A DNA stretch of 62,543 bases, the filler included, from Hausera hauseri (lineage: Eukaryota): the NCBI GenBank assembly GCA_046269625.1. It is 10 parts of 10 records of this genome, joined end to end, with 100 filler letters (N's around TTAATTAATTAA, not from the genome) between each part and the next. Parts side by side here need not be neighbours in the genome. Positions count along the whole stretch, not along the records: positions 37,749 to 44,358 come from JBJURY010081880.1; 9 more parts are not named here. One strand, 5' to 3'. This document shows positions 28,767 to 50,933 of this stretch, one piece after another. Numbering within the stretch: position 1 is the first letter of the stretch; the number at the start of each line of letters is the position of its first letter. Under the pieces are notes generated by a model that worked only from the letters and a program-made list of their open reading frames with translations, did no database searches and was not told the origin of the DNA. The translations under genes were made by a program, and so were the position numbers.

Positions 28767-28948
28767 GGGATATTGCTTACATTTCTAAATTTAAACAAAT
28801 TAACATTTAAAATAGATTAAAATTATAAATAAAATAAATTAAAATACATAAACTCGTAAAATTAAACATTAAGCATAATCCCAATTGCCTTACTCTGTTA
28901 AAAATGTTTGTTCCCCATGCTTCTACTATTATTACTACTACCAATCAA

Positions 28949-29218
28949 ATGGAACAGTACATTGAAAGTGAGAATCATAAACTGACCGATAATATTTTGA
29001 CCCGGCATGTGTTTGATGTTCAGTATTTATATGAACTCACAAAAACGAGAGTAATGATCAGGCGAAAATATATTGAATTAATAGTCAGATCTCTCTTCGT
29101 AAAACGTATCGAGGATGGAATGAGACGAAAAATACAATGACGTATTAATTTCCTCATTGGACTTGTATTTACTGCTTAGATTCGTATTGTAATGAAAAAG
29201 TTAATTGACCGTATTTAA
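28949..29218 (+). pseudogene. Small ORF with C-terminal hydrophobic segment, copy 2
   Basis: MEQYIESENHKLT...KIQ*RINFLIGLVFTA; the stop corresponds to CGA in copy 1. Confidence 0.5.
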
Positions 29219-29342
29219 CCACATTTGCATTATATTTATATAATTTTTCTACGTGTTTGTTTTTATGTATTAATGCAATTTATTTTGCATTCAAGCTACA
29301 TTGCAGTATAAATATTTGTGCTGTTTCCTATAAGATTATACA

Positions 29343-29583
29343 ATGTCTCACTTGATACAACTCATTGGTTTATACCACTCATTCGACGCTCTCAGAAACC
29401 ACCTGTACAATCTCGATCGGCCCTTGGACAATGTTTGGTATTTGTCTCCTAAAGAGCTACTCCTACTTGCTGAGCAGAATTGGAGAAAACGGAAACCCAA
29501 CTTACGCCATATGAAGCAGGTTGCTGGTGATATGGAATTTTTATTCTGTAAGATTTTTCGCACATATGGAAAAATGGCTGATT
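29343..29583 (+). CDS. Hypothetical protein of the Polinton-like locus, copy 2 (truncated by contig end)
   Basis: Homolog of ORF 19870; preceded by the conserved TATA box. Confidence 0.55.
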
Positions 29584-30089: not shown

Positions 30090-33000
30090 TTGAATTTGAT
30101 ATTAATGATGTTTGATGAAGATTTAGTTGAGAGTAGAACTGCTAACAAGCAGAACTTTATAGATAGAGATGAAATTGTGTTTAAGATGCAACACCTTTTT
30201 GAATTATTAAAAGTTCCCAGGAAGGTTTCCTATATAAAGGAAAAGGTGATTGAATTAAAAAACTTGTTAAAGAGTCTTGATAAGGTAGATAAGGCCATTC
30301 TTAACAATATTTCCAAATTTGAGTCCTTAAATGGTCACCATGCAGAAGAATTTAAGAGATTGTATAAACAGAGATGTGAACTAGACATAGGGATTCATGA
30401 AATACCTGATAGGCCAGTAGAAGCCCCTGAGAATGACAGTATTTCTGTGTCAGAGGAGTCTGTAGTTGGCTGTCCTAATTCTAGTGTGACTAAGGCAGAC
30501 TCTAGTAGTGCCCATAGTGTTAGGATTGATAGTAGTGTTGCACCAGGTAGAAACATAGAGCCATTAGATATTGGCAAATTCTATGGAGGTGGCAATGATG
30601 AGTTGGCTTTCTCAAGGTTTTTCCATAAATTTTTAGCAGTAATTGGAAATAACTCTGAATATAGCGATGAAAGAAAATTTCTTTATTTAGAGTCACATCT
30701 GGGAGGAGAGGCTCTTCGGTTAATAAGACATTTGAGCTTAAAAGACAAAAATTATGAATCTGCGGTGAAACTTCTTAAAGCTGAATACATGAATGAAGAG
30801 GTGGTAATTGACAAAATATTGAGTAGAATTGTGATGTCTACTCCTCCTCCTGATAATGATCTTGCCAAATTGAAAGGGTTTGTAAATGAAATACAAGCAT
30901 TGGTATATGATCTGATGAGTTACAATTTAAATTTCTTGGAGCCTAAAACCCCTGGGTTCTATTTGCTTAGTTCCATTGTAAGGAAGAAACTTCCATCCAA
31001 ATTTCGTACTGCATTAATTGATAAATCTTCATCTAATTTCCCAAATATTGTACACTTGTTTGAGCATTCTAGTAGTTTGTTGCGAAGGTTAAAAGAGAGT
31101 ACTGATATTCCGCTCAATCTTGAAAACACTACTGCAATTTCTGGTAAAAAAAATGGTAGGCATAAGTTCAGTAATTTGCATAATAAAGGTCCCTTAAGCA
31201 GAGAGAATAGTCAGGAAAAGTATGTCAAGAATTCACAAAAAAGCATGAGTACTTTAGAAAACTTTAAAATTATTGCAAACTCTTCTGAACAAAATGTTCA
31301 GAGTGGTAGACAAGGCAACCAGTATCCAAAGCCTTGCAAATTCTGTGGTATAGGCAATCACTCGATGAATAAATGTGATCAATATGTTGATATTACAGCT
31401 AGGTTAGCTCGCTGTGAGGAGTTGAATATATGCCAACTCTGTTCGAGTTCTAGGCATTTAGCAGAGAGTTGTCCTGGGAGAGAGGGCAAGTTAGATTTTA
31501 AATGTAACCGCTGTGGTCTTTTTAATCATATCACAGCACTATGTAATAAACCTAAAAATGGAAATAATAATCAAACTTTTTCTAATCTTTGCATAAATTT
31601 TAGTAAAGCTAATGGTAGGTCTTATTTACTCCCTGTAATGACATTGACTTTGATGAGAGGAGGAAAAAGGTTCAATTGTAGGGCATTAATTGATACTGGG
31701 TCACAGCGCTCATATATTAGTAGTAATGTTGCTATGAAATTTTTAAATTTAGATGCACTGAAAGAGGAAACTTATAAAATCAATAGTTTTATAGCTGCTC
31801 AGGAAAAGAAATTTAAATTAGCTTCCTTTGATATGGTTCTTTTCAACAAATGCATACAAAGTCCTTTGTTAATTGATGAAACCTTTAAAATAAACTTTAA
31901 TATTGAGGGTATGAATTTTGCTTTAAAAAATTTACTAGAATTAGGATATACATTGGCAGATGTTGATTTTAATATTAATAGGGATAATTCTTCCTTTGAA
32001 TTAGATGCATTAATAGGTGTTGACCTCATTCAGTTTCTCCCTTCCTTTGTATTAGAGAGGTGTATGAATGGATTTTGCTTCCGAATTGAGAATGCTATTA
32101 TACCTTTTGGTTGCATTGAACACTTTATAAATAAAAGTCAAAGGGATTTGCTCAAATCTCATAGCTGTATTGAATCTAGTGTTCCCCTTGACAATAATAT
32201 GCACACTGTATTAGTTAATAATATACTTGAACCAGTAAAGTCTTATTTTAATCCTTTGCATAGTATTCTTGAAGATAGCGCAGTTGAACAAGGATTAGAT
32301 AACCTTTTTACTTTAGAGAGTTTAGGTATTAAAAATAATGATGAGGAACTTTGTAAATCTGATTTTCTTCAAGTTAACAAATTTAATGCTGGTATTGTGT
32401 TTAAAGATAATCAATATTTTGTAAAACTACCATGGAATGACAAAGTGGAAATGGTTCCGTCCAATCATGTGGTAGCACTTAAAGCCCTTGATAGGGTAAT
32501 CAATAATTTAAACAATAAAAATTTATTGGCTGAGTATGGTAAAGTGTTTGAACAACAGTTGGAAGATGGTATCATTGAAAAGGTTGAAATAAATCCTAAA
32601 GATTATCATAAAATGGTATTTATACCTCACAGGCCTGTCATAAAAATTGATGCCCAAACTACTACAAAGATTAGACCTGTTTTTAACTGTTCTCTTAAAA
32701 CCAGAAAGCATTTGCCCTCCTTAAACGAGGCAGCATATCCTGGTGTTGATTTGATGACTTCATTGTTGAAATTAATTTTGAACTTTAGATGTAACGATTA
32801 CATTATACTTGCAGATGTAAAACAGGCTTTTCTTGCTATTAAATTATTATCTGATGAAGACAAAAATAAATTTTGCTTCTTCTGGAAACAAAATGGGAAA
32901 TTAATTACTTATAGGTACTCTTCTCTTGTTTTTGGGTTTGTGAGTTCTCCTTTTATATTGAATTATGTGATGAAACACCATGCTTCAAAATATCCCAATG

Positions 33001-35807
33001 ATCTTTGTACTCAGTTGCTATCTAATAATTTCTATGTAGATAATCTTATTTACTCATCTAATGACCCTGGTGAGTTAGAATACTTATATAAAGAGGCTTG
33101 TAATAGAATGAGTGAAGCTTCTTTTATTCTGCGTAGTTGGAATTCTAATTTACCTGAGTTAGTTGATACTTTTAAAAATGATGGTCGACATGCTGAGCAT
33201 GGTTGTCCTGAGGAGAAGGTGTTAGGGTACAGATATCATCTACAGGATGATGTCATGAGTATTGCTCCTGTCGACATTGATTTACATGCAAATACCAAGA
33301 GAAAAATCCTTTCAGCTATTTCTAGTGTTTTTGATCCACTTGGCCTTGTATTGCCTATTACTGTAAAAGGTAAAATATTGATGCGAAGCATCTGGAGTCT
33401 AGTTCCCAAAGTAGGATGGGACACTCCCCTTGAGAAGGACATTATTGAGGTATGGAAAAAATTGGCAGTAAGTCTGTCTAAAGTTTCTGACTTGACATTT
33501 AAAAGGAATGTCCTTAGTAAAGATAAGAATTATGGTCTGCATGTTTTTTGTGATAGTTCCAAAACTTCTTATGGTTTTGTTGTATATGGTTGCTGTGACA
33601 ATAACAAACCTGAATTATTATTTTCTAAGGCAAAAATGGCACCTATAAGGGGTCTCAGTATACCAACTCTAGAATTAATGGCCGTCTTCTTAGCTCTGAA
33701 ATGTTTGCCCATGATTATAGAATCGTACGAAACCATAAAATTTGATTTTATAAATATTGCTGTAGATGCTCAGGTAGTTTTGTCATGGCTGTTGAATAAC
33801 AATCCTAGAGTAAAATCTAAGATCATAAGCAATAGGCTTAAGGATATTGATTTATTTAAGAAAGATCTTAAAACTAAGTTTAATTTGCCTGTGTCATTCA
33901 GGTATGTAGATACTGGGTCTAATCCTGCAGATCTTGTTACTAGAGGGGTTAGTTTTAATAAGTTTTTTGAAATGAGTTCTTTTTGGAATAATGGTCCTTC
34001 CTTTTTATCTAATGATTTGTCTTTGTGGCCAAGTTACCCATTGCTTAGTATTGCCCCAGATTGTAAAGCTATTAGCTTTGTAAATAACACTATTGTTGAA
34101 GGTATTGATAAAATTGATCTAATAAACATTGATAAATTTTCTAGGTTACATAAACTTATGAAAGTTACCATAAATGTATTTAAATATATAAATGCTTTGA
34201 GGAGGGTCAACAATGATCCTGCTAATTCTGCTTTAGCATATTTACTGAGAACTATGCAGGCACAGTGCTTCAAAGAAGAAATTGCTTTTTTGAGTGCTAA
34301 AGATAAGCCTGAGACAGTTCCCACTTTGGTGAAGAATTTAGATCTATTCCTTGATGAAAAGGGACTGTTGCGTTCTCATGGCAGAGTGTCCAAATGCCTG
34401 CAATTTGATTTTGATGTTTGCAACCCAATCTTGTTAGCTAAGTCGCACCATTTGACAAATCTATTTGTTATGGATGCTCACTCTGAGGTGCAACATCTGG
34501 GTATTCAAACAACTCTCAACTTAATTAGGAATAAGGGATTCTGGATACCCCAAGCTAGGCAAGCCATAAAAAATTTTTTGTCTTCCTGTATGCTATGTAG
34601 GAAGTATAACACACTGTGTTATAAGTATCCAAAGTTGACAAATTTGCCCAAGAATCAAATGAATTTTATAAAGCCTTTTCAACATGTGGGAATTGATTAT
34701 ACTGCTCATGTTTTTGTTAAAAATCCAGATGATGGAAGCCTGTCTAAAATGTATATATTGCTTTTTACTTGTTTGAATATTAGGGCCTTACATCTGGAAC
34801 TGGTCCCAGACATGAGCACTCAGAATTTTTTAATGGCCTTTCAAAGATTCTGTAATAGGTTCGGTTTACCATCTCACATTTATTCTGACAATGCTAGGTC
34901 ATTTGTAAAAGGAGGTGATATATTGAGTGAATCTTTGACTGCTCCTGAGTTTTGTGAACATCTCTCTAAATCTCATATTAAGCATATCAAGATACCAGTC
35001 TATGCAGCGTGGGTGGGGGGATGTTGGGAGCGTCTTGTAAGAACCGTGAAATCTTGCCTAAGAAAGGCTGTCGAGAGAAGTTCTGTTACTTATTTTGAAC
35101 TTTTGACTACCCTATCTAGCATCCAAAATGCTATAAACTCAAGGCCTTTAACATATAGGTGTTCTGAAAATGATTTGAATATCATCTCTCCAAATTCTTT
35201 CTTGAAATTACATGGGAACTCTTCCCTCATGCTTAGGGAGCCTGAGGAAGATTCATGGCGAGAAATTGACAGAGATGAGGTGTTGAAGACACTTGATAAA
35301 CAGTTAATAATGTTTGAAGAATTTAGGAGACTCTGGTATAATGAATATTTGCTCAGCTTGCGTGAACATAGTAAGAATTTATATCAGACTCCTTGGACCA
35401 ATCGTATAAAAATAGGTGATGTGGTACTGATAAAGTTACCTCACAAGTCTCGACCCTTTTGGATGTTGGCCAGGGTAATAGAGGTTATATTAGGCTATGA
35501 TAATATAATAAGGTCTGTGAGAGTGAAGCAAGCTAATGGTGAAGTAGTGCTTCATCCAATTTGCAACTTATATCCTTTGGAACTTTCTATAACGCATTCT
35601 GGTGCTAGGCAGGATGAGGAGAGACCCAAAACCTCAGAACAGGAGTCCAGATCTCTTGATAATGTCTCAAATCCTGTGCCAGCTCCTGATGCTGTTGATC
35701 AACTCAGTTCTCAAGTTGACCCTCCGGATGAGCCTGAAAGGAGACCTGTCAGGAGAGCAGCTAAAAATTTCAGGAAATTCCTGAGGGAGAACTTGGATGA
35801 TCTCTAA
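30090..35807 (+). CDS. gag-pol: BEL/Pao gag-pol polyprotein (1905 aa): DUF1759 gag, 3 Zn knuckles, protease, RT, RNase H, integrase, DUF5641
   Basis: SDERKFLYLESHLGGEA; CKFCGIGNHSMNKC / CQLCSSSRHLAESC / CNRCGLFNHITALC; RALIDTGSQRSYI; IPHRPV..TTKIRPVFN; FYVDN; FCDSS..SIPTLEL; NPADLVTRG; H..H..CMLC; IDY, SDNA, WERLV; FRRLWYNEYLLSLRE. First ATG at 30105. Confidence 0.97.
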   Translation: MNLILMMFDEDLVESRTANKQNFIDRDEIVFKMQHLFELLKVPRKVSYIKEKVIELKNLLKSLDKVDKAILNNISKFESLNGHHAEEFKRLYKQRCELDIGIHEIPDRPVEAPENDSISVSEESVVGCPNSSVTKADSSSAHSVRIDSSVAPGRNIEPLDIGKFYGGGNDELAFSRFFHKFLAVIGNNSEYSDERKFLYLESHLGGEALRLIRHLSLKDKNYESAVKLLKAEYMNEEVVIDKILSRIVMSTPPPDNDLAKLKGFVNEIQALVYDLMSYNLNFLEPKTPGFYLLSSIVRKKLPSKFRTALIDKSSSNFPNIVHLFEHSSSLLRRLKESTDIPLNLENTTAISGKKNGRHKFSNLHNKGPLSRENSQEKYVKNSQKSMSTLENFKIIANSSEQNVQSGRQGNQYPKPCKFCGIGNHSMNKCDQYVDITARLARCEELNICQLCSSSRHLAESCPGREGKLDFKCNRCGLFNHITALCNKPKNGNNNQTFSNLCINFSKANGRSYLLPVMTLTLMRGGKRFNCRALIDTGSQRSYISSNVAMKFLNLDALKEETYKINSFIAAQEKKFKLASFDMVLFNKCIQSPLLIDETFKINFNIEGMNFALKNLLELGYTLADVDFNINRDNSSFELDALIGVDLIQFLPSFVLERCMNGFCFRIENAIIPFGCIEHFINKSQRDLLKSHSCIESSVPLDNNMHTVLVNNILEPVKSYFNPLHSILEDSAVEQGLDNLFTLESLGIKNNDEELCKSDFLQVNKFNAGIVFKDNQYFVKLPWNDKVEMVPSNHVVALKALDRVINNLNNKNLLAEYGKVFEQQLEDGIIEKVEINPKDYHKMVFIPHRPVIKIDAQTTTKIRPVFNCSLKTRKHLPSLNEAAYPGVDLMTSLLKLILNFRCNDYIILADVKQAFLAIKLLSDEDKNKFCFFWKQNGKLITYRYSSLVFGFVSSPFILNYVMKHHASKYPNDLCTQLLSNNFYVDNLIYSSNDPGELEYLYKEACNRMSEASFILRSWNSNLPELVDTFKNDGRHAEHGCPEEKVLGYRYHLQDDVMSIAPVDIDLHANTKRKILSAISSVFDPLGLVLPITVKGKILMRSIWSLVPKVGWDTPLEKDIIEVWKKLAVSLSKVSDLTFKRNVLSKDKNYGLHVFCDSSKTSYGFVVYGCCDNNKPELLFSKAKMAPIRGLSIPTLELMAVFLALKCLPMIIESYETIKFDFINIAVDAQVVLSWLLNNNPRVKSKIISNRLKDIDLFKKDLKTKFNLPVSFRYVDTGSNPADLVTRGVSFNKFFEMSSFWNNGPSFLSNDLSLWPSYPLLSIAPDCKAISFVNNTIVEGIDKIDLINIDKFSRLHKLMKVTINVFKYINALRRVNNDPANSALAYLLRTMQAQCFKEEIAFLSAKDKPETVPTLVKNLDLFLDEKGLLRSHGRVSKCLQFDFDVCNPILLAKSHHLTNLFVMDAHSEVQHLGIQTTLNLIRNKGFWIPQARQAIKNFLSSCMLCRKYNTLCYKYPKLTNLPKNQMNFIKPFQHVGIDYTAHVFVKNPDDGSLSKMYILLFTCLNIRALHLELVPDMSTQNFLMAFQRFCNRFGLPSHIYSDNARSFVKGGDILSESLTAPEFCEHLSKSHIKHIKIPVYAAWVGGCWERLVRTVKSCLRKAVERSSVTYFELLTTLSSIQNAINSRPLTYRCSENDLNIISPNSFLKLHGNSSLMLREPEEDSWREIDRDEVLKTLDKQLIMFEEFRRLWYNEYLLSLREHSKNLYQTPWTNRIKIGDVVLIKLPHKSRPFWMLARVIEVILGYDNIIRSVRVKQANGEVVLHPICNLYPLELSITHSGARQDEERPKTSEQESRSLDNVSNPVPAPDAVDQLSSQVDPPDEPERRPVRRAAKNFRKFLRENLDDL

Positions 35808-36874: not shown

Positions 36875-37862
36875 AATTAAAACACCTCAAATTATTTTAC
36901 TCTTTATTAAAAATTTGTAATTTTTCAATAGATTGGAAATTGTGAGCCAAACATTGACATCAAAACTGAAATAAAAATAGAATAAGAGGCTATTAAGATG
37001 GAGGACTTGAAGAGTGAGGTAATATTTTATTTTTGGCAAAATACTCAAGTAGATGGGGGGCAAGTAAGAATATTTTTATTAAATCATATACTATCCATCC
37101 ATTTATCCGGTAGCATTTCATTAATTATTGGGTATGATCAGCAAAAATGTTTAGCAGTTTCAAGTGTTCCCGCACCAAAAGATCTTGCTTTACATGTTCA
37201 GCTTTCCGACTGTTTTGATAGCAGTCAGCTTTGTGTTAATTCATATTAGTACAAAAATTCATTGTTTGTCATTTTCTCAGATTTTAGGAGTGTAGTTGAA
37301 ACGGTAACCATTACACATCTTTAAAATCTAATAATACCAGTGTTTACTCCATAGGCTACTAGGAGTAAAGATATTCTTTGTCAATTTTTATGGAAATACA
37401 GACAAAGGAAACTTATATCAAGTTTCCCATGAAAATTACACAATTTCTTACTTCTGATAGGACATTATCTTTTATAATTTAGCTATTCTTTCATCCAGAC
37501 TATGAAGCATGCAATGCATTATACACATATGAATAGATCCATTAGCACAACTTCTTAAACCTTATCTTTATCCTTAACAAATTCCAAAATATTTTATCTC
37601 AATTTCAAAATATTACTAGTTTTAGTTCTCCAGTTTTAATTTGGTAATNNNNNNNNNNNNNNNNNNNNNNNNNNNNNNNNNNNNNNNNNNNNTTAATTAA
37701 TTAANNNNNNNNNNNNNNNNNNNNNNNNNNNNNNNNNNNNNNNNNNNNTTAGCAAACTGTTGGAAGAAAGCTAAGCAAGCAATCAAGCAATATAAACAAG
37801 AATATCAAGAATATTATAATAAAAAGGCTAAGCCACATAAATTTCAACCAGGTGATAAGGTA

Positions 37863-39941
37863 ATGGTACATTACCCGGTAGCTAAACCAGGAAAATCATT
37901 GAAATTAACCCGCACAGGTAAAGGACCTTACTTAATAGTAAAGGTCACAGCTGAGAATATCTTCATTGAAAAAGGCACTAGTAAAAAGGCTAGAATTGAA
38001 TGTGTATCAGCCCAACGAGTTACGAAAGGACCAAAAGAACCAAAACCTAAAGAAGAACCTCGATATTCATTGCGATCAACTAAGCAACCAACCTTAAAAC
38101 CATCCTGTAGTTTAGAACAACTATTTCTTATAGTCATGATTTTTGGTCTAATGTTATCAACTACAGCACAAACCTTAATAACAAACCCTATAATCACAAA
38201 TCTAGAATTACGAGTGAAAATTACCTGGCAGAATTCCACAAACACAGTAAAAGGATTATTTGTAGGAGAATCAAAATACAAAGAGATTACACAACTGATC
38301 CTATCACCAGAAGTTAATGACGCAATATGGTTATCAACCAAACGTTGTTCAAACCTCCTATTAAATGAAATTTGTCTTTTAGATCTTTATTTCCTAAACA
38401 CTGAAATGTTGTTGAAACCAAAGCAGAAGATACTGCCTATAGCAAGACAGGTATATGTGGAAAGAATCGGCTCTACCTTTTTCTTTACTCAAGAGAAAGA
38501 CAATGAACCAAAATTAATAGACAAAGTAATGATAAAAAGACCAACCCTCACCAACGACGTTGATTTACAAATAACTTATTACTTCCCTAGACTGTTTAAA
38601 CATAAGTCAGGAGAAAAAGCCCTGAACTTCCATATTAATATGCCATTATTGAAATTCTTTCAAGTATGCCAAACAACGACATTAATTATAGCCACCTTCG
38701 TAACTTCTAGTAATAACCAAATTATCACTAAATTAAACAAAATGCCTGAGATAATCATTAGTCCATCAGATTTATATATTGAATTTAAAACTTTACAACT
38801 AGTAAAAAACCCCATATCCATAACGTGTGTAGGAAAATATCATAATATATACACCGTCATAAAAGAACATGAACGAATAACCAGATGTACTGACCTTCAA
38901 CCCGATGAAGAATACTTGATTGTCTTCACACAAAATTATGCCAAAACACGACATCAAACAATCCGAACTAAAACCAGAACGGAAAAATATTTGATGCATG
39001 AAGAAGTTCCGATTTATACGCAGTTACAACTAGCAACCAAACCTAGTATGCAAACAGATACATTGAGGATTATAGTCCCTTCCATTATAATAATACTCCT
39101 CTTACTATCCATATCTACACCCTTCGTAATAATAGAAATAAAAAGATTTTCCCAAAAACAAGCTATTATGAGTAAAACCCTGTTATTAACAACACATTTA
39201 ATATGTTTGGCGAGTGTGGAGTGGATAATCGACGTTGAGGAAGATAAAAATTTTAAAAATCCTAGAGGATATAATTCAAGTTTCAAATACCTAAAAAAAC
39301 ACACACGTTATAAACTAATACATACATTAAAGAGCAATACCAAGTTTCAACCAATAAAATTACGATACACTAGTGATACAATAACACCAATCAAAAAATA
39401 TAGTAGGGTAACCACCTACCCTAAAGATGGGCCATTAAATAAGACCCACCATAGTAATCATTCTTCTTTCAGCAAAATAAGTTTTCAAAAAGATCAAGAA
39501 CAAAGCAATATGGAGATACAAGATGTCGACTTAGACGCCCGTGACTCAGATTCCGATGCATCAACCGAAACCGTGGTGTATAACCCTAAAAGAAAGGTTA
39601 TACCACCATGTCATAATTCCTTTACATTTCAAAATCCTACTCAAGGATTAGGACTTTCAAGAGGGATATTGGCAAAGCAAACAATTCAGAACTTACCAGT
39701 AACAATGGTAACTCCACCACGAATTCAATCTGTAGTTGAAGTTCGAAAAAAGGGAATAGATATTAATGATCTACCAAGGTATAAACAGACCAAATTACAA
39801 TTACAACTCCAGGAAAACCTCTTAGATAATGAAAAATATCGACTCAAAACTAAGCCATGGATTGATTTATACAATAAATCAATTCTCGTATATGACGCCG
39901 GAAAAATATGTATCCAAGCAAGTTTTATCATAGGCTTATAG
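37863..39941 (+). CDS. Integrase C-terminus read through into signal peptide, ectodomain with FN3-like segment, TM and cytoplasmic tail
   Basis: GPY motif; LFLIVMIFGLMLSTTAQ (signal-like); CTDLQPDEEYLIVF..QTIRT (FN3-like LxPxxEY); IIVPSIIIILLLLSISTPFVII (TM). The frame is open from the contig start. Confidence 0.7.
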   Translation: MVHYPVAKPGKSLKLTRTGKGPYLIVKVTAENIFIEKGTSKKARIECVSAQRVTKGPKEPKPKEEPRYSLRSTKQPTLKPSCSLEQLFLIVMIFGLMLSTTAQTLITNPIITNLELRVKITWQNSTNTVKGLFVGESKYKEITQLILSPEVNDAIWLSTKRCSNLLLNEICLLDLYFLNTEMLLKPKQKILPIARQVYVERIGSTFFFTQEKDNEPKLIDKVMIKRPTLTNDVDLQITYYFPRLFKHKSGEKALNFHINMPLLKFFQVCQTTTLIIATFVTSSNNQIITKLNKMPEIIISPSDLYIEFKTLQLVKNPISITCVGKYHNIYTVIKEHERITRCTDLQPDEEYLIVFTQNYAKTRHQTIRTKTRTEKYLMHEEVPIYTQLQLATKPSMQTDTLRIIVPSIIIILLLLSISTPFVIIEIKRFSQKQAIMSKTLLLTTHLICLASVEWIIDVEEDKNFKNPRGYNSSFKYLKKHTRYKLIHTLKSNTKFQPIKLRYTSDTITPIKKYSRVTTYPKDGPLNKTHHSNHSSFSKISFQKDQEQSNMEIQDVDLDARDSDSDASTETVVYNPKRKVIPPCHNSFTFQNPTQGLGLSRGILAKQTIQNLPVTMVTPPRIQSVVEVRKKGIDINDLPRYKQTKLQLQLQENLLDNEKYRLKTKPWIDLYNKSILVYDAGKICIQASFIIGL

Positions 39942-41533
39942 AACTCACAGAAGATTCGACAGATGTACTATTCCTACAAAGTAAATATCTAGAAAATAGT
40001 TTGAAAACTTCGACCATTAATGAACGATCCTTCCGTATAATAAAAATTGACAATCCATGTTACAATGTCAAATTAGAAGAATTCCTTAAACTACAAGAAC
40101 CTTTTGAAAAAATACTCCTGCACGTAGCGAAAGGAAGAATTCAACTACGAGCACATACGGATACCTATGAAAGTATCAACCCAAAACAATCAGTTTTAGA
40201 TTCTAAATCTACCATGAAAATCAATAATATTGCGTTTAAAACGCCTCTCTATTTCAGAATACTACTAACCCCAGTAGTATTAAGCGTCGAAATATGTCAA
40301 GCATTGGATGAAAACTTAGGATTTCAAGAACCATTATTTCATCAAAGACCACAAGAAGATGTATCAAACTTCCAACTTTCAACAGTTTGTAATTATCGAT
40401 ACCTATCAGTGTCGCTCGCATATGCTCCAAACGGAGACCCGTTACCAGTAGAAGTTATGGTCGCAGACGAAGCAAAATTGCTTATCTATCACGCGTTTCT
40501 CAACCCCAGGAGAAAAATCTCTAACACTAACGAGCATATTCATGGACTATCATTATCCATCATAGAAGAGGCAGAAGATGAAGAACTAGTAAGAAAAGAG
40601 CTCGTTAAATATCTGTATGGGTACATCATTATTAGTGCTAATACAAGCACTATTCTCAAAGCTTTAAGGATACCGCAAACCTTTTTATTCGGAATTATCG
40701 ATTTATTATCTATATCCAATACAAAAAGAAGATTCGAGGAAGAGAAGATAAAATTAAATCTCACGCAATTGCCACGGGTATATGGATTTCAAACGGACTT
40801 CCCTAAAACAGCTGAATCCATAATCCAAGTCATAATGGATATTTACACCAAAATCACTGATTCATGTTCCAACGAACATTGGGAACATAGTTGGATTCCA
40901 CCGTTTCACAATCTAATCGATTATGGGAGCTTCGAAACAATACCACAGAAATATCATATGAATTACAAATACGAAAAAATAGTGGAAAATAACATCACAG
41001 AACCAAGAGTTGAATCTCCAATTAAAAAATTGAAGTTGCAAACCAATGCAATTATGGACAACCTTAACCAGAAGGAGAAAATCGTTTTTACTCAATTGTC
41101 CATTCTAATTTATGGACATATGAATCATATCATCAATGTCAAATTTACAAAAGAGCCAAAAACGACTCTTAATCAATGGAGGCAAATAGTCCCAACCGAG
41201 CTGTTTGGAAAAGTAGTGGGACTAGTTTACAAACACTCTATATATAATACCTTACATCTGGCAATGATCGGGATATATTTTGATATACTAAAAGAAGTAC
41301 AGCACAGTCCTATATTGACTAATCAGCCAATACCGGTACAAATGGATATGGTACCAATACCAAATCCACGAGGAAAAACAATCAAATTACGCAACTCCGG
41401 AAAATCCAACATTAAAATGTTACTATTCGCCAAAAAAGACGAATATACGCTGGAAAATCTCTACCAAATCGCGACAGTGATCCAAACTGAAGAAGAAATG
41501 GACATCCATAAAGACTTTTTTATCCAATTATGA
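39908..41533 (+). CDS. Retroelement accessory ORF (541 aa) with degenerate DEDDh (REX4/ISG20-like) exonuclease domain
   Basis: YLSVSLAY..PVEVMVADEAKLLIYHAFLNPRRKISNTNEHIHGLSLSIIEEAEDEELVRKELVKYLYGYIIISAN..LKALRI..IIDL follows the REX4-like pattern, but the ExoI DxE is absent. Overlaps the upstream ORF by 34 nt. Confidence 0.6.
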   Translation: MYPSKFYHRLIELTEDSTDVLFLQSKYLENSLKTSTINERSFRIIKIDNPCYNVKLEEFLKLQEPFEKILLHVAKGRIQLRAHTDTYESINPKQSVLDSKSTMKINNIAFKTPLYFRILLTPVVLSVEICQALDENLGFQEPLFHQRPQEDVSNFQLSTVCNYRYLSVSLAYAPNGDPLPVEVMVADEAKLLIYHAFLNPRRKISNTNEHIHGLSLSIIEEAEDEELVRKELVKYLYGYIIISANTSTILKALRIPQTFLFGIIDLLSISNTKRRFEEEKIKLNLTQLPRVYGFQTDFPKTAESIIQVIMDIYTKITDSCSNEHWEHSWIPPFHNLIDYGSFETIPQKYHMNYKYEKIVENNITEPRVESPIKKLKLQTNAIMDNLNQKEKIVFTQLSILIYGHMNHIINVKFTKEPKTTLNQWRQIVPTELFGKVVGLVYKHSIYNTLHLAMIGIYFDILKEVQHSPILTNQPIPVQMDMVPIPNPRGKTIKLRNSGKSNIKMLLFAKKDEYTLENLYQIATVIQTEEEMDIHKDFFIQL

Positions 41534-41732
41534 CTCTTTCGCTTTAACTCATGTATTACTGCATAACACTTTTGTCTTAATTTATACTGTTGTATTTCTG
41601 TACCTTATTTTTATTGTGACACTTTATACCTCATAACAATTTGTATTTTCTTTATTTTTCTTGTAACCAGAGAGAATCGATTTCACGTAACTATTTAATT
41701 AAAATTTTTATTACAAAGGAAAATTTTCTTCT

Positions 41733-41760
41733 AAGGGGGGGGAGATGTTGAGATGTTGCG
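41733..41760 (+). promoter_or_regulatory. Polypurine tract and start of 3' LTR (TGTTG at 41746); LTR end not determined
   Basis: AAGGGGGGGGAGA|TGTTGAG, 200 nt after the last stop codon. Confidence 0.8.
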
Positions 41761-42286
41761 AAATGATTTAAAAGAGCAATGCTTAAATTAATTAGTTTAA
41801 ATAGTTTATTAACTTAGATGTTGCGAAATACTAGCAAATAAAGCAGAATTCTATCTGAATGAAGTACACAAATGACTTGCAAGCAATTTTAGAACATTAT
41901 AATGCCTGTTTCAATAAATTTTTATGAACGATTCATCGTACCATGTCATAGTAATTATCATCACGTTGCAGAACCAGTGATAGAACATAGTGCAAATGTA
42001 GATGGTTATGAAACCGTTGAGTGCAGAATGAAATTGTAAATTGAAATTGTAAATTTCATTATCATACAGATAATGCAGCTAATAACTTAAAAATAAGTTA
42101 GTCAATCAAGTTATATGATTTCTAAGTTTTAGTAGCTGATGATTTTCAACTCTTAAATAAGTATTGCTTTAGCTATAACAAATTCATGATTTATACAAAT
42201 ATTTTGAATTATTATTCATTGCTTTCTGTATTAGCAAAATAATTAACTAGCATAAGCGACACTCACAATAACAATAAAAATTCGTG

Positions 42287-42466
42287 TACAGGTTGGCAAG
42301 AACGACATTGCATGTGGACTCAATTCCGCAGTAGCAAAATTGTATTTGAGGCATACATCCATTTCACTCCATGAAACTCAGCTATATGTTCATTTTATAA
42401 TAATGCTTCATCTGCTTAAGTCACTCAATGTGCACGTCCACACGCAATGTCGTTCTGGGTCCGTAT
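42287..42466. mobile_element. Small MITE-like inverted-repeat element
   Basis: agaacgacattgcatgtggac (42299-42319) is the reverse complement of gtccacacgcaatgtcgttct (42436-42456) with one mismatch; TA dinucleotides lie just outside. Confidence 0.55.
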
Positions 42467-43095
42467 AAAAAAAACAAACGCCAGAAGAATGGAAGCAATG
42501 CAAAATACATTTAAACACTTATAGGTGGGAATTGGTTTTATAAATATAGGTACATTTCTGTTAAATTCATACAGAATCAATTTGACTAAAGTTTAACACC
42601 AGTTTGTCTTATTGTTGGAAAAAAAGAAGACAAATCACAAATCGAAATCTGGTTTATTACAAAACTCACTTTCAAACAGTGTCATACTTTCCTAATGGAG
42701 ACTAAATATTCATGATTCATTTTACTGAAAACCTTTCACATAAAATGAGCTTTTAAATTACACATGGTTAGTTTTGTTATTGACAGTTTGCTTCAGCCAG
42801 ATTCCCACAATGGTTACTGTGTTGATTGGCACGACATTTGGACCCAGCCCATGGCTCTGTGTGCATACGAGAACTTTCTAGCAGAGATTACACCGGCAGG
42901 CCAGCAGCTTTCATTTGTACAGTGGTTTGCAAAATTATTTGGCTTTTCTTCTAGGATGGCTCCAGTTATCTCTGATCAACACAAGTTTCATAGTGGTAAA
43001 AATGTGTGTTCAAGATGACTCAGTGTTCACATCATTAAAATAGTTTTTGCTGCAGTCATTTTACATAATTCTCCACCAGGGATGGTTTAACGCAC

Positions 43096-43362
43096 CTTGT
43101 CGTGGCACGGCTTCTCGCACGCCAACATCTGCTTCACGTTGACCCCCAGCGCCCTCTCCACCAGTCGGATGGAGCGAACCAGTTCAGCCAGCTCGGCGGG
43201 CTCCAGTGAAGCTGCGTGGTCACTTCCCTTCCAGGTTTTGTCCAGAGTTACGTGGCGCTCGACGACCTTCGCTCCCAGAGCCACCGCGGCCACCGAGATG
43301 CCGATTCCACACTCGTGGCCAGAGTACCCGATGGGAATGTCTGGAAACTCCTTCTGGTACTC
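43096..43362 (-). CDS. NANS: N-acetylneuraminate-9-phosphate (sialic acid) synthase, single 267-nt internal exon, vertebrate (teleost-like)
   Basis: EYQKEFPDIPIGYSGHECGIGISVAAVALGAKVVERHVTLDKTWKGSDHAASLEPAELAELVRSIRLVERALGVNVKQMLACEKPCHDK, bounded by cag| and |gtgcgt, phase 0/0, GC-rich codons. Very close to vertebrate NANS. Confidence 0.95.
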
Positions 43363-44470
43363 CTGCAGTCAACACGTGGATAAAGAAACAGCCATTCTTT
43401 AAAAGAAGAAACAATAATGTCTGGCTTGATAGAAGCTAAACGAATCAGGAGTCCTCATTCTTCTTCTCTATTAACTCTTTAACAACGTTTTTACCAGTGT
43501 TTCCCTCAGAAGTAGCTCTTATGATGAGCTCAGCAAATACTCAGTTCCAGCAGCTGTTTGCTAATTACTGCTGGCTAGTCTGAAGGAGCAAAGTGGGGGA
43601 AGTTTGGAAACTGTAGCTTCATCTTGTCTTTTCGCTTCAACAGTTTAGTTTCCAAAGTGAAATAAACCAAACAAACTTATTTTACACAGAGAGGCAAATT
43701 AAATAATTTTTCTGACTGTAGCCATCAAATTTTACAACTCAGTGTCTGTTTACTCTGGACTCATTTTTCACCCTCACCTAAACAAAAACACTGAGTCTGA
43801 CTCACTGAAGCAGGAATAAAACATTGTAATGAAATAGGAATCAACATTAAAACCTGTTAACTTCTGATTACTCACACAATGTGATTGTTTAGTCCATGTG
43901 TGTGAAGACACTGAGTCCATTCTGAATTTTTTTACGCATTGTCTACATTGCAGTGAAGTGCTGATGTTTTGCTATATGACAGATGGACTATTGTGGAGCA
44001 AGATAAAAACTGGCCTCAATGACAGCTGGGGCAGATGGCCTGAAGAGGGCAGCGTTTACCTTCCTACCGTGCAACAACTCGCACACAAAAAAGGCTTTCA
44101 TCCATAATTACTTTCAGCAAGGTTTTCTTAATCCTGAAAACTCAGTCTGGAACATTAATGGATTTCATTATTATTAAAAGTAAAAAACAAAAATAGTTTA
44201 TAATTTACAAAGATTAATTCAGCTCTTGCAAATATATAAGATTATATGTGCTTTAGTTCTCTGCAGGTCTTTAGTAATGCAGGTGAACATAGCATGAGCT
44301 AATTACAAAATGTCTGAGCGTTTGTTGGAAAAACTTCAAACTTACATCTGAGCGTGAANNNNNNNNNNNNNNNNNNNNNNNNNNNNNNNNNNNNNNNNNN
44401 NNTTAATTAATTAANNNNNNNNNNNNNNNNNNNNNNNNNNNNNNNNNNNNNNNNNNNNGTATTACTGTAG

Positions 44471-45232
44471 ATAAAGAATAACGGATACGCCCATGAGCTG
44501 AGCTATAGACTTTATTTCCGAGGAAGGATACTAGACGAGACAGAATTATTGATAGAGGTTGGAATTATACCAGGAGAATTAAACCGGTTGGTCGTAACCA
44601 CCACTATCGATGAAACAAAAGAAGAGGCCATAAGGAAGGCTAAGGCAGAACAACAAGTAAGACAAATAATAGGAGTCCGAGATGCAAAAGTATATTTCGA
44701 GTACCTGCAAACAGATGAAGATAATGAGCAATATAATAAAAATTTAGTACCGATCGATGGCAGTGTACCTGCTATAACATAACAAAAGCGTCCTAACGAC
44801 AGAACACGGCAAATGCGGGAGGAGATCGACTATAATGAAGACTTAATCAGAGAATTGAGGCAGATGTCCATATCAACCTTTAATGCGGATAATGAGGAGC
44901 TGAACGAACTTATGAAAAATTTGATACGAATAGTAAACCACTCTAACCTCGGTGGTGATATATTAGACGAGAAGGAGAAGGCCATAGCGAACGCCGCCAA
45001 GGCCATGAAGAACCTCCGGTGTAAATCAACCAAAAGTACTTTAAGCGATGAAATGATAATTGGGAAAATTATGGTCGAATATACCATAAAAGAATTAAGA
45101 AAAGTACTGCTATATCTGGCCATCAAAACTAACTCAAATAGAGGAAATGAATTTAACAAGGCTACTAGCTTGGCAAGGAAGGCTGCCAAGAAGCTACCCC
45201 GAGAAGTGAACTGGTGGATTCTTCTTCGATAA
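44471..45232 (+). pseudogene. Upstream ORF with ubiquitin-like domain and helical region
   Basis: The frame of ORF 44549 extends 5': SYRLYFRGRILDETELLIEVGIIPGELNRLVVT (compare ubiquitin [31 protein letters not shown]); homologous to 14100-14230. Confidence 0.6.
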
Positions 45233-45289
45233 CAATAGATTCGGAGATCTGCTGCAAAATATAACTGGAAATCACAGAGAAGATGAATC

Positions 45290-47150
45290 AAATTGGCTAA
45301 TCAATTTTTTGACCATGATTATGTTAATAAGGCAAATGGGCGCAGTCACGGTATATGATTGTGACAAATTTAGACTTGGCCAAAAATATTCGTTAATGGA
45401 CTTGGAAATGTGCGAAGATGCGAGGCCCCACAGATTAGAAACAAAAGAGAAAAATTATATACTATAACAACAACGTGAACTAGTTATGCTGGATGGAGCA
45501 GAATGTATGTTACGCCAATCTCGCAGTATCTTCCATTCTGGACTGGTACATGGACACTCATCAATAATCAAGCCAACAACACCACTAATTCCGATGAATC
45601 TAGAACGTCAACATTGTAAGCAAGCTAGAGTAACGGGGAAAATAAAATGGGACAGTATGGAACTAGAAATGCAACAAGGGAAAATAATCAGAGTGTATAA
45701 AGTAGCTGCAGGACGGCTGGACATGCACACCGAACATTGTTATGGCGTGGAATATGATACCGGGAAGGGATTGGAGTCAAACGTCGTGGTAGTGAATTTT
45801 TACGAAACCAAAATGCGTATTCAGAAAGTGATGTTTCATAGTGTTACTAAATTTTACACCGAGAACCACAAGTGCCACATTCAGGATGGCACATGCCCTT
45901 TTCGAAGTTCCGTAGTAATTTTGGAACCCACAGCCAAGACCGATTGCAACTTGATCAGAATTAAAGAACTTAAATTCAACGAGACGACAGGAAAACGATA
46001 TATAAGTAGCACAGAAACTAACTCTAAAACAAGAGAATATGTAGCTGAACAGTCTACACCCACTATATTGATTTGTGATACTCATGGATTAAAATTTGTA
46101 AAGAAAGCTATGCTCACCAGATGCGACGTCATAATGTATGCCACCAACTATGAAGTATTTTTCGTAGCCGAAACAGAAATAAACACCAGAACGTTCAAAC
46201 TCGAGACTCAGGACATCCGGATTAAAGAAGAATTGAAAAAAAAAAACAACTCCTTCGACTATAAAGGACAAGCTGGAATAGCTGAGTTGTACCACAAGAT
46301 GATAACAAACGACTGCAAATTGGATTTGGAAATCATGAGAACTAAACAAGCTCTACTATACGCAAATCCGGAGTTGGCATCACCAATAATTTTGATAAAA
46401 AAAGGTGTTTTAGACAAGTAACCGGAGAAGTCTTATTGACGTATGAGTGCGAGAAGAAAGACGTACCGATTAATGCGGAAGAGAAGAGGTGTATACAAGA
46501 GCTTCCAGTGATGTATCAAGACGTACCGGGGCTAGTAACACCAATTACCAGAGTACTATTGGCTAATGCTACTCAACCGACAATTTTAAAAGACTAAAAC
46601 CAGCTTAGGAGAGCCGATGTTCAGACGTAGCGAAACCGATTGGGTAAGTTTACCGAACGGTGGTATTATTGCACCACTTGCCAAACTGACAGGAACAAAT
46701 CTGATAAAAGGAATAACCGATAATAAGTTTCAAGATACAGCCGCAAAAGGTATTTATCTACGAAAAGAAGTAGAGGTGTTCAGACAATTTCTCGCTTTTT
46801 CTCGCCAACGTACACATAAATTAAACAGAGCAATGCATACAATATTACAGGATTCGCGTTACCAAGCAAAATTGGATTCATTACTTGGTGTTGGCTATTA
46901 CAAGAAGGTAAGTACAAAAATATTATACAAAATTTGGGGAAGATTCCTGATATTCGGACAAGCCGCGTCAGGATTTCTAGCGAGATACTTCTTATTTCAA
47001 CTGGTACAAGCTATAATTCAAGAAATTATAAATGGATATGAAATATTCACCTTGACAGGATTTTCGTGCAAAATTTTAACGGCTATTATTACACCTTTCG
47101 GTAAATTCTTAAAGGATTATAAAGAAAGTAAATGGAAAACACATGTGGAA
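45290..47150 (+). pseudogene. env: Chuvirus-like envelope glycoprotein
   Basis: Signal WLINFLTMIMLIRQMGA, then VTVYDC..QKYSLMDLEMC; ECMLRQSRSIFHSG..HSSII; AAG..HCYGVEY; KCHIQDGTC; ELYHKMITNDCKL..NPELA; TGEVLLTYEC..CIQELPV..VTPITRVLL; PMFR..DWV; AAKGIY; IWGRFLIFGQAASGFL..INGYEIFTLTGFSCKILTAII. Confidence 0.85.
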
Positions 47151-48092
47151 CGACATGTTGGCTACTATAATCGGAAAAGCAAAAGGCACATATTCGATTA
47201 TAGTCAAAAATTCATAAATGATAAGACACGAAGAAATAATTCCGAACATGACGAGCCTAAGGGAGGAGACGTCATCTCCAGGCCGAGTAGGCACAAAAAC
47301 TACTCTGTTATGAAACTACCATTACCAATATTGCCAACAACGGCACCTCTATATGAAGATTGCGAGAAACAATCTATGAGCTCGTGCCAGATAGACATCT
47401 ATCGGAAGCCGCGTAGTTTAGAAGATCCTTACGAAGGAGCAAAACGCTATGGGATATTGCGCAAGATCCACGAAACGGATAGAACCTCGACTCCACATCA
47501 TCGATCAGCCATCGACGACCACGGTATAATTTACTCACCTAGAATACCTAAGCCAAACAAAACGCAATTTACTCGAAGCTGTGAGGCACGAATTCTCCGA
47601 AACCCAGATGTTCAGCCGCCAGTTAGAAACCAAAGAGTAGAAAATGCGAATGGCACGAATAACGAACTATACCCAATTGGAGAGTTTAGACAATTAATCG
47701 ATCAGCCAGTTGGAACCACTGAAGTTACCATCAAAGGCTACAAGGTGTCCACGGTACGACACCCCAAAACAGCATCAAGTTATTACGGTACCGTAATCGA
47801 AGGTAGGCCTTTCGCAAAGATTCCATTGGAAGATTGGGAAGTTTACGCATTAACAGATACAGGATCTGAAATATCACTGATAAAATATGATTCGACACCT
47901 GCATTCCTACGGAGACAATTGTACCCGCCTCCTGCGATGGATCCAGGAAGCATCGGAGCTTTCGGACAGTCGTCAAAAAGTAAATTCCGTTGGAAACCAG
48001 AAATTCACATAATGGGGCAATCTTTTCGTCATGAATTCTCAGTAATGGAGCAATTAACGGACGATGTAGTGTTAGGGTGTGACTTATTGTGA
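46617..48092 (+). CDS. Continuous ORF joining glycoprotein C-terminus/TM, a Pro/Arg-rich linker and the aspartic protease
   Basis: A single 491-aa frame contains both FGQAASGFL (G membrane region) and VYALTDTGSEISLI..DDVVLGCDLL (protease). Confidence 0.88.
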   Translation: MFRRSETDWVSLPNGGIIAPLAKLTGTNLIKGITDNKFQDTAAKGIYLRKEVEVFRQFLAFSRQRTHKLNRAMHTILQDSRYQAKLDSLLGVGYYKKVSTKILYKIWGRFLIFGQAASGFLARYFLFQLVQAIIQEIINGYEIFTLTGFSCKILTAIITPFGKFLKDYKESKWKTHVERHVGYYNRKSKRHIFDYSQKFINDKTRRNNSEHDEPKGGDVISRPSRHKNYSVMKLPLPILPTTAPLYEDCEKQSMSSCQIDIYRKPRSLEDPYEGAKRYGILRKIHETDRTSTPHHRSAIDDHGIIYSPRIPKPNKTQFTRSCEARILRNPDVQPPVRNQRVENANGTNNELYPIGEFRQLIDQPVGTTEVTIKGYKVSTVRHPKTASSYYGTVIEGRPFAKIPLEDWEVYALTDTGSEISLIKYDSTPAFLRRQLYPPPAMDPGSIGAFGQSSKSKFRWKPEIHIMGQSFRHEFSVMEQLTDDVVLGCDLL

Positions 48093-48329
48093 CAACTTCC
48101 TAATATAGCAATCGATTTCAACGCAGGCAAATTGATAGAACTTGGTCCAATAAAGGGAGTTAAATCCACCAAAGATAGAAAGTTTTGAGAAGTGTGGATC
48201 CCGGTAGATAAAAACGTACCACTCAGAACAGAAATACTCATATATGTTCAGATTCGTCAGGATGACGATTCCACTTAAGAAAAACCCGGGTCTAACGATG
48301 AAATAGACTTATAGGATCAAAAGATGCCG

Positions 48330-50898
48330 AAATGGTATCTTCCTCCACACTAATTAATGCCAGAGATAACCAAACAGGTTGAACGAATGTTAAAGGCCGA
48401 CATAATTAGACCAAGCTACAGATTTTGGTATTCAACTATACTCATGGTTAAGAAGAAAGGTACCAGTAAGCACCGATTTTGCATCGACTATCGAGCATTA
48501 AACACACTTATGATGAAGGATTCCTTCCCGTTACCATCGGTAAGAAAAGCTTTGGACAGACTTTAAGGAGCTAAATGGTTTACCACGTTCGACTTACAAT
48601 CCACGACTGGCAGGTAGAGATAAAGGAAGATCGCTACAAAACGGCATTTAAAACACATGATGGTATATACGAATTTCATGTTATGCCATTTGGAATAACT
48701 ACCGGACCAGCCATCTTTACACGCATGATGAATTAGATGCTAATGAGACTGGAACACGCGTTCACCTATTTAGATGACGTCATGATTGCCTCGAAAACGG
48801 AAGAGGATCATTTAAAAGACATTGGAGGTACACTCATGAGATTGGAGCAAGCTGGATTAAAGCTGAATCCGAAGAAGTGCAAATGGGCTCAAAATGCTGT
48901 ATCGTACCTTGGACATATAGTTGGAGAAGGAGGGTCGAAGCCGGATAAATCATTATTAAGTAAGATATCGGATTGTATGGAACCTCAGAATCACAAGGAA
49001 TTAAGACACAGGTTAGGTCTGTGTGAATATTATGCAATCTACGTACCAGATAACGCAAAGATAAACGCACCTTTATACCGCTTACTCAAAAAAGGGATTA
49101 AATTTAAATGCACCGATATACAACAAAAAGCTTTTGACGAAATGAAAAAGATTCTAACTAGTGAACATGTTCTACGGTACCCCGACTTTAACCTACCGTT
49201 CATAATAAAAACAGACGCCAGTGAGGAAGGTATCGGATATGAACTGGCTTAGAAACTAGAAGACGAGGAGCTAGAACATCCGATCGCATACGGAGGAAGT
49301 TCCCTAAAAAGGCCGAGAAGAACTATTCTGTTACGGAGTTTGGAACATTAGCAGTGAAAGAAGCCCTGCGAAATTTTAACGTGTACGTCTATGGACAGAA
49401 AATTGTAATCGTTACTGATCATAAGGCAGTCACGACTTTAAAGGGTAGAGCAAATAATCCGACGTGTAGATTAACAGATGGATAGAGGAAATCTCACGTT
49501 ACAACATTGAATTCCAATACAAACCCGGAAATAACCATGTCGATGCCGACGCATTATCAAGACTTAAAACCAAAATAAGCGCAGTTACAATAATGAGGAA
49601 AGCACACCTTGAAGATGTAATAGAAATACAAGAAACTCTCACATTAGATAAGGCGTTAAAGATTGCCGTCGAACAGAGAAAAGACAAGGTTATACAGCAG
49701 ATTATCGAGTTCGTTGATGCCAACGTGACATCAAAGGGTCATCAGCTACGGAAACACCTACGATGATATGGTCACAAATACTGCGTCGCTGGATACTTGA
49801 ACCACGAAAATGTGCTATACTACGAACGAAAAGGACGAAAATTAGTCGTCATACCGAAGGAATTACGAGCGGAAGTACTCATGGCCGAACATGATTCACA
49901 CTTAGCCGGACACATTTCGTGGAAAAAGACATGGGAAAGGATATTAAATAAGTACTATTGGCCGAGCATTTACATTGACGTGAGAAATTGGGTAGATGCT
50001 TGTGAAGTGTGTGCGAACAAGCAGACAAAAATGAAAAACTACGTCGCTGAGCTTAAACCTATCGATGTGCCCGATCGACCAATGCAAGCAATGTCTATGG
50101 ATATTGTAGGACCATTACCTACGACCCACAAAAACAACAAATATATTTTGACCTGTGTAGATCGATTGACTCATTTCGTCGAGCTTATAGCGTTAATAGA
50201 CCAAAGGGCAGAGACTGTGGCAGAAGTAGTAGTTCGGAAAATTATTTGCAGATACGGACCACCCGAACAAATTTTGACGGATCGAGGAAGAAACTTCACA
50301 AGCGAATTGTTCGACAAAATTAAAAAAAATTTTCAGATTGAACGACTAACTACCACAGTTTATCATCCCCAATGTAATGAGATGGTCGAACGAATGAACT
50401 CGACAGTTATACGGATTTTATCGACGGTAGTCGCAAAAGACCAGAAAGATTGGGATGAATTCTTAGAAGGTACACAATTCGTTATCAATACTACCCCGCA
50501 TCCTGCGGCAGGCTTTACTCCGTTTTTCATGATGTACGACAGAGAAGCTATACTGCCTACAGATCTAGGATTGATTCCTTACACAAAGAAAACTGGAAGA
50601 TTTGGAACAGAATTTTGTCGAGGTATTACAATTGAGATTACACAGGTGTTGGGAAATATCCAAGGAAGTATCTAAAGAATACCAGGAACAATTCAAGAAG
50701 CAATACGATAAGAAGGCTAAACCACATGATCTAGAACCTGGAAACTGGGTTTATGTGTACTATCCAGTGGCAAAGAAAGGCACATCTCTTAAGCTTACCA
50801 AAACAGGTAGAGGACCTTATGAAGTTACCAAGGTTACACCAACCACGGTTTATCTAAATAAAAAGGTAAGGAAGAGGTCATATCAATTCAGAGAGTAG
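48330..50898 (+). pseudogene. pol: Gypsy pol: RT, RNase H, integrase with GPY module
   Basis: RFCIDYRALN..DSFPLP; MPFG; TYLDDV; GLKLNPKKC; IKTDAS; YKPGNNHVDADALSR; HDSHLAGH..CEVC; MDIVGP, LTDRG, MVERMN; KTGRGPYEV. The RT-RH-IN order is Ty3/Gypsy. Confidence 0.95.
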
Positions 50899-50933
50899 TT
50901 AAAACGGAAATAAGACCAGACAAACGCTATAAT

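Follow-up and report, generated by a model that had tools for sequence, protein, structure and literature searches.

The window analysed here, a stretch of 62,543 nucleotides from the draft genome of Hausera hauseri (GCA_046269625.1), consists of ten draft contigs joined by N-linkers. The copies of the retroelement considered below, named G, H, J and C, lie at 37749–44358, 44459–51464, 56774–62543 (minus strand) and 10048–14466 (minus strand), respectively, and their features are collected in Table 1. The G contig begins inside the integrase, which places G's own env region off the contig, and no contig in the window carries env together with the part encoding the FN3-like domain and the TM. 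The two are linked by a chain of copies, in which H carries env, junction and head, J carries junction, head, FN3-like domain and TM, and G is the third member.

Elsewhere in the window, positions 14567–29583 hold two decayed elements, 75–80% identical, with pieces of a protein-primed polB (PF03175, E 5e-5) and of endonuclease VII (PF02945, E 1e-6), which we take to be Polinton-like. An intact BEL/Pao gag-pol frame of 1905 codons, without env, occupies 30090–35807 (plus strand), an intron-free cytochrome P450 frame (E 7e-80) lies at 55381–56616 (minus strand), and a frame of 1541 codons with internal repeats of 51 and 84 bases and a C2HC zinc finger lies at 212–4837 (minus strand).

Table 1. 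Features of the four element copies, in positions of the window
Copy	Feature	Span	Strand	Support
G	C-terminal Ty3/gypsy integrase with GPY module (37923–37931), ending RYSLRS (38061–38078)	37749–38078	+	Aligns with the H integrase tail at 47% aa identity (E 5e-26)
G	Basic linker and internal signal-like sequence, h-region 38121–38156, small-residue c-region	38079–38168	+	KD19 1.96 (hydropathy, run aa126–144)
G	Outer ectodomain (head), ~185 aa, one N-glycan sequon	38169–38732	+	No detectable homology to H/J head
G	Membrane-proximal FN3/Ig-like beta-sandwich (predicted) with Cys pair and LQPDEEY (38895–38915)	38733–38984	+	AF2, fold match, homology to J
G	Short stalk and TM helix (39069–39134), then basic residues	38985–39134	+	KD19 2.67 (peak)
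G	265-aa tail behind TM, second weak hydrophobic run (39180–39236)	39135–39941	+	Without family match
G	ORF2, 545 codons, overlapping the ORF1 end; DEDDh/DnaQ-like domain ~40370–40750	39896–41533	+	J homology; PolC exonuclease E 6.5e-7; TIGR01406 E 9e-4
G	Polypurine tract, then TG as start of 3' LTR	41733–41750	+	Read from sequence
H (decayed)	Ubl-like and helical segments, class III env (PF24664), then protease, read in the same 500-aa frame as the end of env	44471–48089	+	Profile and pairwise comparison
H (decayed)	RT, RNase H, integrase, GPY, frame change, signal-like stretch, Cys-rich head; contig stops in head	48737–51464	+	Profile and frame reading
J (decayed)	Integrase tail, signal-like stretch with A-K-A-Q at its end, homologue of the Cys-rich H head, FN3-like domain, TM	60700–62543	-	Sequence comparison
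J (decayed)	ORF2 homologue with DEDDh-like domain, broken frames on into C3HC4 RING finger	58112–60575	-	PF00097 E 6e-5; shuffles
J	Polypurine tract, then TG as start of 3' LTR	58046–58063	-	Read from sequence
C (decayed)	Ubl-like and Bcl-2-like segments, class III env, protease and start of RT; 5' order as in H	10048–14466	-	Profile and pairwise comparison

One open frame from integrase to membrane anchor

In copy G, 730 codons (37749–39938) are open and lead from the integrase tail through a signal-like stretch and an ectodomain to a TM, 297 residues separating the signal-like run from the TM, as the initial annotation had read it. Between 38100 and 39938 the frame has no stop in 613 codons, against 67 and 55 stops in the other two frames. 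With this composition, 610 codons would stay open by chance with a probability of ~1e-20. The product is predicted, from hydropathy, to be a type-I membrane protein with a signal and a TM. Cleavage would follow Ala140 according to the –3/–1 rule, and the signal-like stretch ends in T-T-A-Q, where that of J has A-K-A-Q. We note that single-pass topology is not certain, because a second hydrophobic run (aa478–496, KD19 1.68), weaker than the TM, lies in the tail.

Copies H and J had been described as having the same integrase-to-signal junction as G. The architecture is indeed the same, and H and J are 71% identical in DNA over 543 nt around the junction, but the sequence likeness does not extend to G, which shares only the integrase tail with them (47% and 44% aa identity with H and J, respectively). 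In H, the frame changes between GPY and the signal stretch, and the contig ends inside the head domain. J, in agreement with the earlier reading, retains LKPKSEY (61028–61008, minus strand) in one frame with GPY, signal and head. This frame contains 5 stops over 453 codons, compared with 35 and 48 in the other two, and a frame change falls inside the TM.

The integrases of the three copies end in R-Y-S-L-R-S (G), R-Y-N-L-R-S (H, ~50925–50945) and R-H-N-L-R-F (J, ~62135–62115). A similar motif, YNLRPR, is the nucleosome anchor of foamy virus Gag in the text available from PMC12125541. The short RYxLRS-type motif, just ahead of the signal stretch, may be the natural end of the integrase.

A predicted two-part ectodomain with an FN3-like base

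The ectodomain of G, which has a single sequon in total, divides into an outer head and a membrane-proximal domain. The head differs from that of J, as first noted: when G is compared with J and with H, 173 and 125 of 1000 shuffles, respectively, reach the real score, whereas H and J have homologous, Cys-rich heads (score 176, 0 of 1000 shuffles). Neither a Pfam match nor a credible PDB match was found for the G head, and the profile of the H and J heads has no PDB match. The sole PDB match of the G head, aldose reductase (E 0.7–1.3), was rejected.

The membrane-proximal parts of G and J, in a region chosen after a tblastn match (E 0.003), are homologous (0 of 1000 shuffles) and share an invariant C, a Y, T-x-C, L-x-P-x-x-E-Y, and T-I-x-T. 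AF2 run on the two-row alignment of G and J gives a seven-strand sandwich of 84 residues with pLDDT 79.7 and pTM 0.66, whereas AF2 run on the single sequence of G from signal to TM gives no usable model (pLDDT 31.8), the outer ~185 residues included. The description of the whole ectodomain as beta-rich therefore holds for its last 84 residues and is not borne out for the outer part.

Three partly independent routes point to an FN3/Ig-like fold for the membrane-proximal domain. By structure, Foldseek with the sandwich model returned nothing at E <= 0.001, its top rows including a consensus scaffold (3.7e-3), which we take to be FN3-derived, and a ROBO1 FN3 domain (TM 0.64). In VIA, bacterial Ig-like domains have Z 7.8 and 7.5 and ROBO1 Fn3 has Z 7.4 (rmsd 2.0, 67 aa), and fibronectin or FN3 is named in 22 of the 50 listed titles, all Z being below 8, a range which may reflect a common arrangement. 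By sequence, the best PDB match of the G+J profile is a tenascin-R FN3 domain (E 0.046). ESM feature neighbours, at lead level only, are FN3 membrane proteins (0.79–0.81). A fold search against BFVD gave nothing at E <= 0.001; its match to EBV gp350 (E 0.014) was not taken as evidence.

Hallmarks of FN3 domains are a Trp in strand B and an L-x-P-x-x-x-Y motif before strand F. The motif is present in G and J, with L, P, E and Y invariant, and aligns to that of tenascin-R, whereas the strand-B position is Phe in both copies. Like the animal FN3 domains of ROBO1, Tie2, fibronectin and tenascin, the G/J domain combines a seven-strand sandwich with L-x-P-x-x-x-Y; unlike them, it has a conserved Cys pair, is only 5–17% identical, and gives no match to Pfam fn3 (PF00041) at E <= 10 for G. 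Because of this missing profile match and the Phe in place of the usual Trp, we call the domain FN3-like only. The structure prediction proposed at the outset thus gives a predicted folded extracellular domain, and open frame, hydropathy, AF2 model and fold matches together support the reading of a second membrane protein with an FN3-like segment.

The surrounding element and selection on the frame

H has the order PR-RT-RNase H-IN, as in Ty3/gypsy elements (Metaviridae), with an integrase core that matches PF17921/PF00665, and G is joined to it by the integrase tail. Among 42 database pols, none comes as close to this tail (best bit score 45) as H and J do (87), and G therefore belongs to the H/J lineage. 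Class III env lies upstream of pol in both C and H, in H on the same contig as the integrase–signal junction, where PF24664 (E 1.6e-17) and PF00077 share one frame at 46590–48089 with env ahead of protease; all five env pieces scanned exceed the PF24664 cut-off. Ahead of env, H and C share a conserved Ubl-like segment (0 of 1000 shuffles), and 3 of its 13 PDB rows are of Ubl type, at E 0.7–1.4 and ranked below unrelated rows. The Bcl-2-like segment ahead of env in C matches PF00452 under the cut-off (E 0.0084), and 4 of its 5 PDB rows are BAX/BAK (E 0.7–1.5). A segment between PR and RT, the place of the dUTPase in Burro, is present in C and H, that of C without Pfam or PDB match.

We regard the element as a Burro-like Ty3/gypsy element, judging by the order of putative Ubl- and Bcl-2-like segments, class III env and pol in C and H; from this gene order alone, a flatworm is the likely host. 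In the text available from PMC6431247, the giant gypsy-like Burro/GYPSM1 elements of planarians carry Ubi/SUMO-like, BCL2-like and mononegavirus-like env domains in frame ahead of PR-RT-RH-IN in one long polyprotein, together with accessory ORFs tied to ubiquitination. They differ from the present copies, whose Gag and 5' accessory domains lie off-contig, in that the same text describes nothing behind the integrase, where we find the signal, ectodomain, FN3-like domain and TM, a dead DEDDh-like ORF, and a RING finger. The gB-type errantiviruses of Platyhelminthes, Nematoda and Bryozoa, Ty3/gypsy elements with the order GAG-ENV-POL, resemble C and H in their class III-type env upstream of pol, but the only domain reported C-terminal to their integrase is a chromodomain, unlike G (PMC13524379, as far as its text was available).

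The cassette does not end at the membrane protein but runs on, beyond what the initial annotation described, into the second ORF and, in J, the RING finger before the polypurine tract and LTR are reached. ORF2 of G and J are homologous (E 3.5e-16; 0 of 1000 shuffles), and the G+J profile matches the PolC exonuclease domain as well as, weakly, SDN1 (E 0.22), the TIGR01406 match being that of G alone. The ExoII Asp aligns with Ile in both copies, and the positions that we take to be those of the ExoI motif have Ser/Ser and Ser/Asn. Because the catalytic acidic residues are replaced in both copies, the domain is read as a dead DEDDh-like one. In the ESM Atlas, no usable match to ORF2 was found. 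In its C-terminal part, ORF2 of G matches the frame of J at whose end the C3HC4 RING lies (0 of 1000 shuffles), and G is without the RING. Since the membrane protein is followed by the DEDDh-like ORF, in J also by the RING, and then by a polypurine tract and the start of an LTR, the cassette lies inside the element; the LTR starts of G and J show no clear similarity.

Behind the LTR start of G, at 41746–44358, the contig is a mosaic that includes a sialic-acid-synthase exon (43090–43368, minus strand; PF03102, E 4e-28), which looks to us vertebrate- or fish-like. X2 contigs match 42502–42939 and 43746–44117 almost exactly and then run into other DNA. The mosaic is either host-gene cargo in the LTR or a chimeric contig.

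Selection on the G frame was judged from the best-supported 40 of 938 and 40 of 214 variant rows, chosen by depth and not by codon position; after 11 rows of the first set that lie outside ORF1 had been dropped, the pooled rows gave 54 distinct sites, which were classified one site at a time, a procedure that is not a full dN/dS. Within aa118–438, the 38 listed sites are distributed 14, 0 and 24 over codon positions 1, 2 and 3 (position-2 deficit, p 2e-7). Synonymous changes account for 19 of them, where the substitution spectrum of the run predicts 28% (p 0.004), and omega on these listed sites is roughly 0.4. Because none of the 38 falls on a second codon position, we conclude that the ectodomain is under purifying selection, and the expectation of such selection among copies is borne out. 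None of the 54 listed sites creates a stop (~2.5 expected, a weak contrast), and the sole indel among the listed rows of the second variant set (40 of 214) is 3 bases long. In the integrase tail and in the TM-plus-tail part, 3 of 8 listed variants each are synonymous, too few to judge, and three variants of the tail are at position 2.

A candidate attachment protein and the alternatives

Tentatively, and at slightly less than even confidence, we propose that the post-integrase protein is the attachment partner of the class III fusogen. In this reading it would be a type-I surface protein, the second of the element, built of an exchangeable head, an FN3-like spacer and a membrane anchor. The basis is a single frame, under selection, that leads from integrase to TM and lies within the polypurine tract/LTR boundary of the element. 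The signal-like stretch is predicted to re-open ER translocation after the cytosolic PR-RT-RH-IN block, which has a parallel upstream in H and C, where a signal-like stretch comes after the gag side and protease continues in frame from the env membrane anchor. The polyprotein would thus cross the ER membrane twice, with env outside, PR-RT-RH-IN in the cytosol and the second ectodomain outside; release of the ectodomain would fall to signal peptidase, and release of the integrase, presumably near its RYxLRS end, either to the protease of the element or to an intramembrane one.

The protein would then share a membrane with Env, its FN3-like domain serving as the conserved pedestal, and the head would bind a host surface molecule and have been exchanged between lineages. 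We infer this role for the head because it is non-homologous between G and H/J, while the pedestal, the TM position and the downstream ORF are shared; the layout is common to subfamilies only 20–25% identical, with the head replaced. In other viruses, variable receptor-binding subunits have been exchanged. The partner would not be required for fusion, since most gB-type errantiviruses are described with Env alone in the text available from PMC13524379. The 265-residue tail, long for a spike and without clear selection, argues against reading the protein as a virion spike.

With greater reserve, Burro-type elements as a class might be two-glycoprotein retroviruses, whose class III fusogen is encoded upstream of pol and whose head-swapping attachment protein is encoded behind the integrase. 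Herpes- and paramyxoviruses split the labour between a fusogen and an attachment protein, a division that, to our knowledge, is not known from retroelements of the Burro class.

A serious competitor, although we doubt it, is that this is a real membrane protein which acts on the producing cell, in adhesion or junction contact, in receptor blocking against superinfection, or in surface remodelling, together with the dead nuclease/RING module. The FN3-TM layout, which is like that of animal adhesion and cytokine-receptor proteins, the long tail, and the DEDDh-like and RING accessory domains that come next would all suit such a role, as would the many host-manipulating domains reported for Burro elements (PMC6431247, in its available part). 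A family profile search, however, finds no signalling or scaffold-binding domain in the tail, and conservation between G and J does not extend to it. The end of ORF1 and the start of ORF2 overlap at 39896–39941, and one near-identical X1 contig has an indel in the overlap, so that other copies may make the tail and ORF2 as a single protein, which would suit this reading; against this, the indel occurs in one contig only, and ORF2 of J has its own Met.

Expression from a separate spliced or internally started message, the integrase frame being incidental, is a question orthogonal to function, and we consider it unlikely. It is suggested by H, in which a Met stands directly ahead of a complete signal sequence, and by the separately expressed env ORFs of other gypsy elements (PMC6431247, available text). 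In G, by contrast, there is no Met before the hydrophobic core (the first, at aa130, is inside it), the sole acceptor-like site found also sits inside the core, and no stop parts integrase and signal in G or J, nor does any listed variant create one.

The other origin first suggested for the ectodomain, a captured host receptor domain, fares differently for its parts. That it is a passively captured host gene fragment without a role for the element is improbable, despite the host-gene piece (a NeuB exon) behind the LTR start of G: the segment is in frame, upstream of the polypurine tract, and selected, and it is kept in subfamilies 20–25% identical, divergence and selection that together argue against recent passive capture, and no host-like homologue was found in the protein collections searched. 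A host protein may nevertheless be the ultimate source of the FN3-like domain. Least probable is an assembly chimera or a chance open frame; the draft contigs are short, G is a mosaic beyond the LTR start and none of the listed contigs covers the whole stretch, but the chance of such a frame is 1e-20, the same order recurs in J and partly in H, and contigs of three runs lie across the region, single ones bridging the integrase–signal junction (X1, 38049–38224, identical; X3, 37947–38146).

Searches for the post-integrase protein found no homologue among 2847 candidates, among 151, or among 1.84 billion representatives in protein collections, nor in 12 stretches of viral contigs or 376 metagenome contigs; these blanks are not evidence of rarity, because eukaryotic repeats are poorly covered. 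A hydrophobic run behind the integrase is absent from 41 of 42 database pol proteins (best 42% identity, none a close relative), and in the remaining one, P0027, whose integrase precedes RT, a marginal run lies far downstream. The literature searched holds no text on a second FN3-like TM protein fused behind the integrase of an env-bearing element, with the proviso that Repbase or figures may annotate 3' ORFs of Burro, and the word 'fibronectin' does not occur in the available text of PMC13524379.

A precedent for a polyprotein from integrase to glycoprotein with a variable attachment subunit is Atlas virus. Like G, Atlas virus and the Cer13-type belpaoviruses encode glycoproteins after pol in one polyprotein, theirs being a GN-like variable attachment subunit and a fusion subunit; they are BEL/Pao elements with a class II fusogen, and both glycoproteins are adjacent and were captured together (PMC9094657, available text), whereas here a class III fusogen and the second membrane protein lie on either side of pol. 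The Juno and Vesta elements of rotifers, like G, have extra ORFs behind the integrase that encode short TM proteins and DEDD-type exonucleases, but their ORF3 is in a separate frame, replaces env, and encodes a DEDDy nuclease with intact catalytic residues (PMC5408684, available text), unlike the dead DEDDh/DnaQ-like nuclease of G and J. Integrase-to-glycoprotein polyproteins, extra TM/DEDD ORFs behind the integrase, and env ahead of pol are thus already known, and the present copies add the exchange of a head on a fixed pedestal, a test of selection, a fold model and the boundary of the element.

In sum, an annotation that ends at the integrase misses a selected three-part cassette of surface protein, dead nuclease and RING in an abundant element family, and the usual place of env is here taken by a protein that is not the fusogen. 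If the proposed attachment role is true, an exchangeable surface domain separate from the fusogen would give direct access to how env-carrying invertebrate retroelements choose their target cells, and it could be studied as an isolated natural ectodomain.
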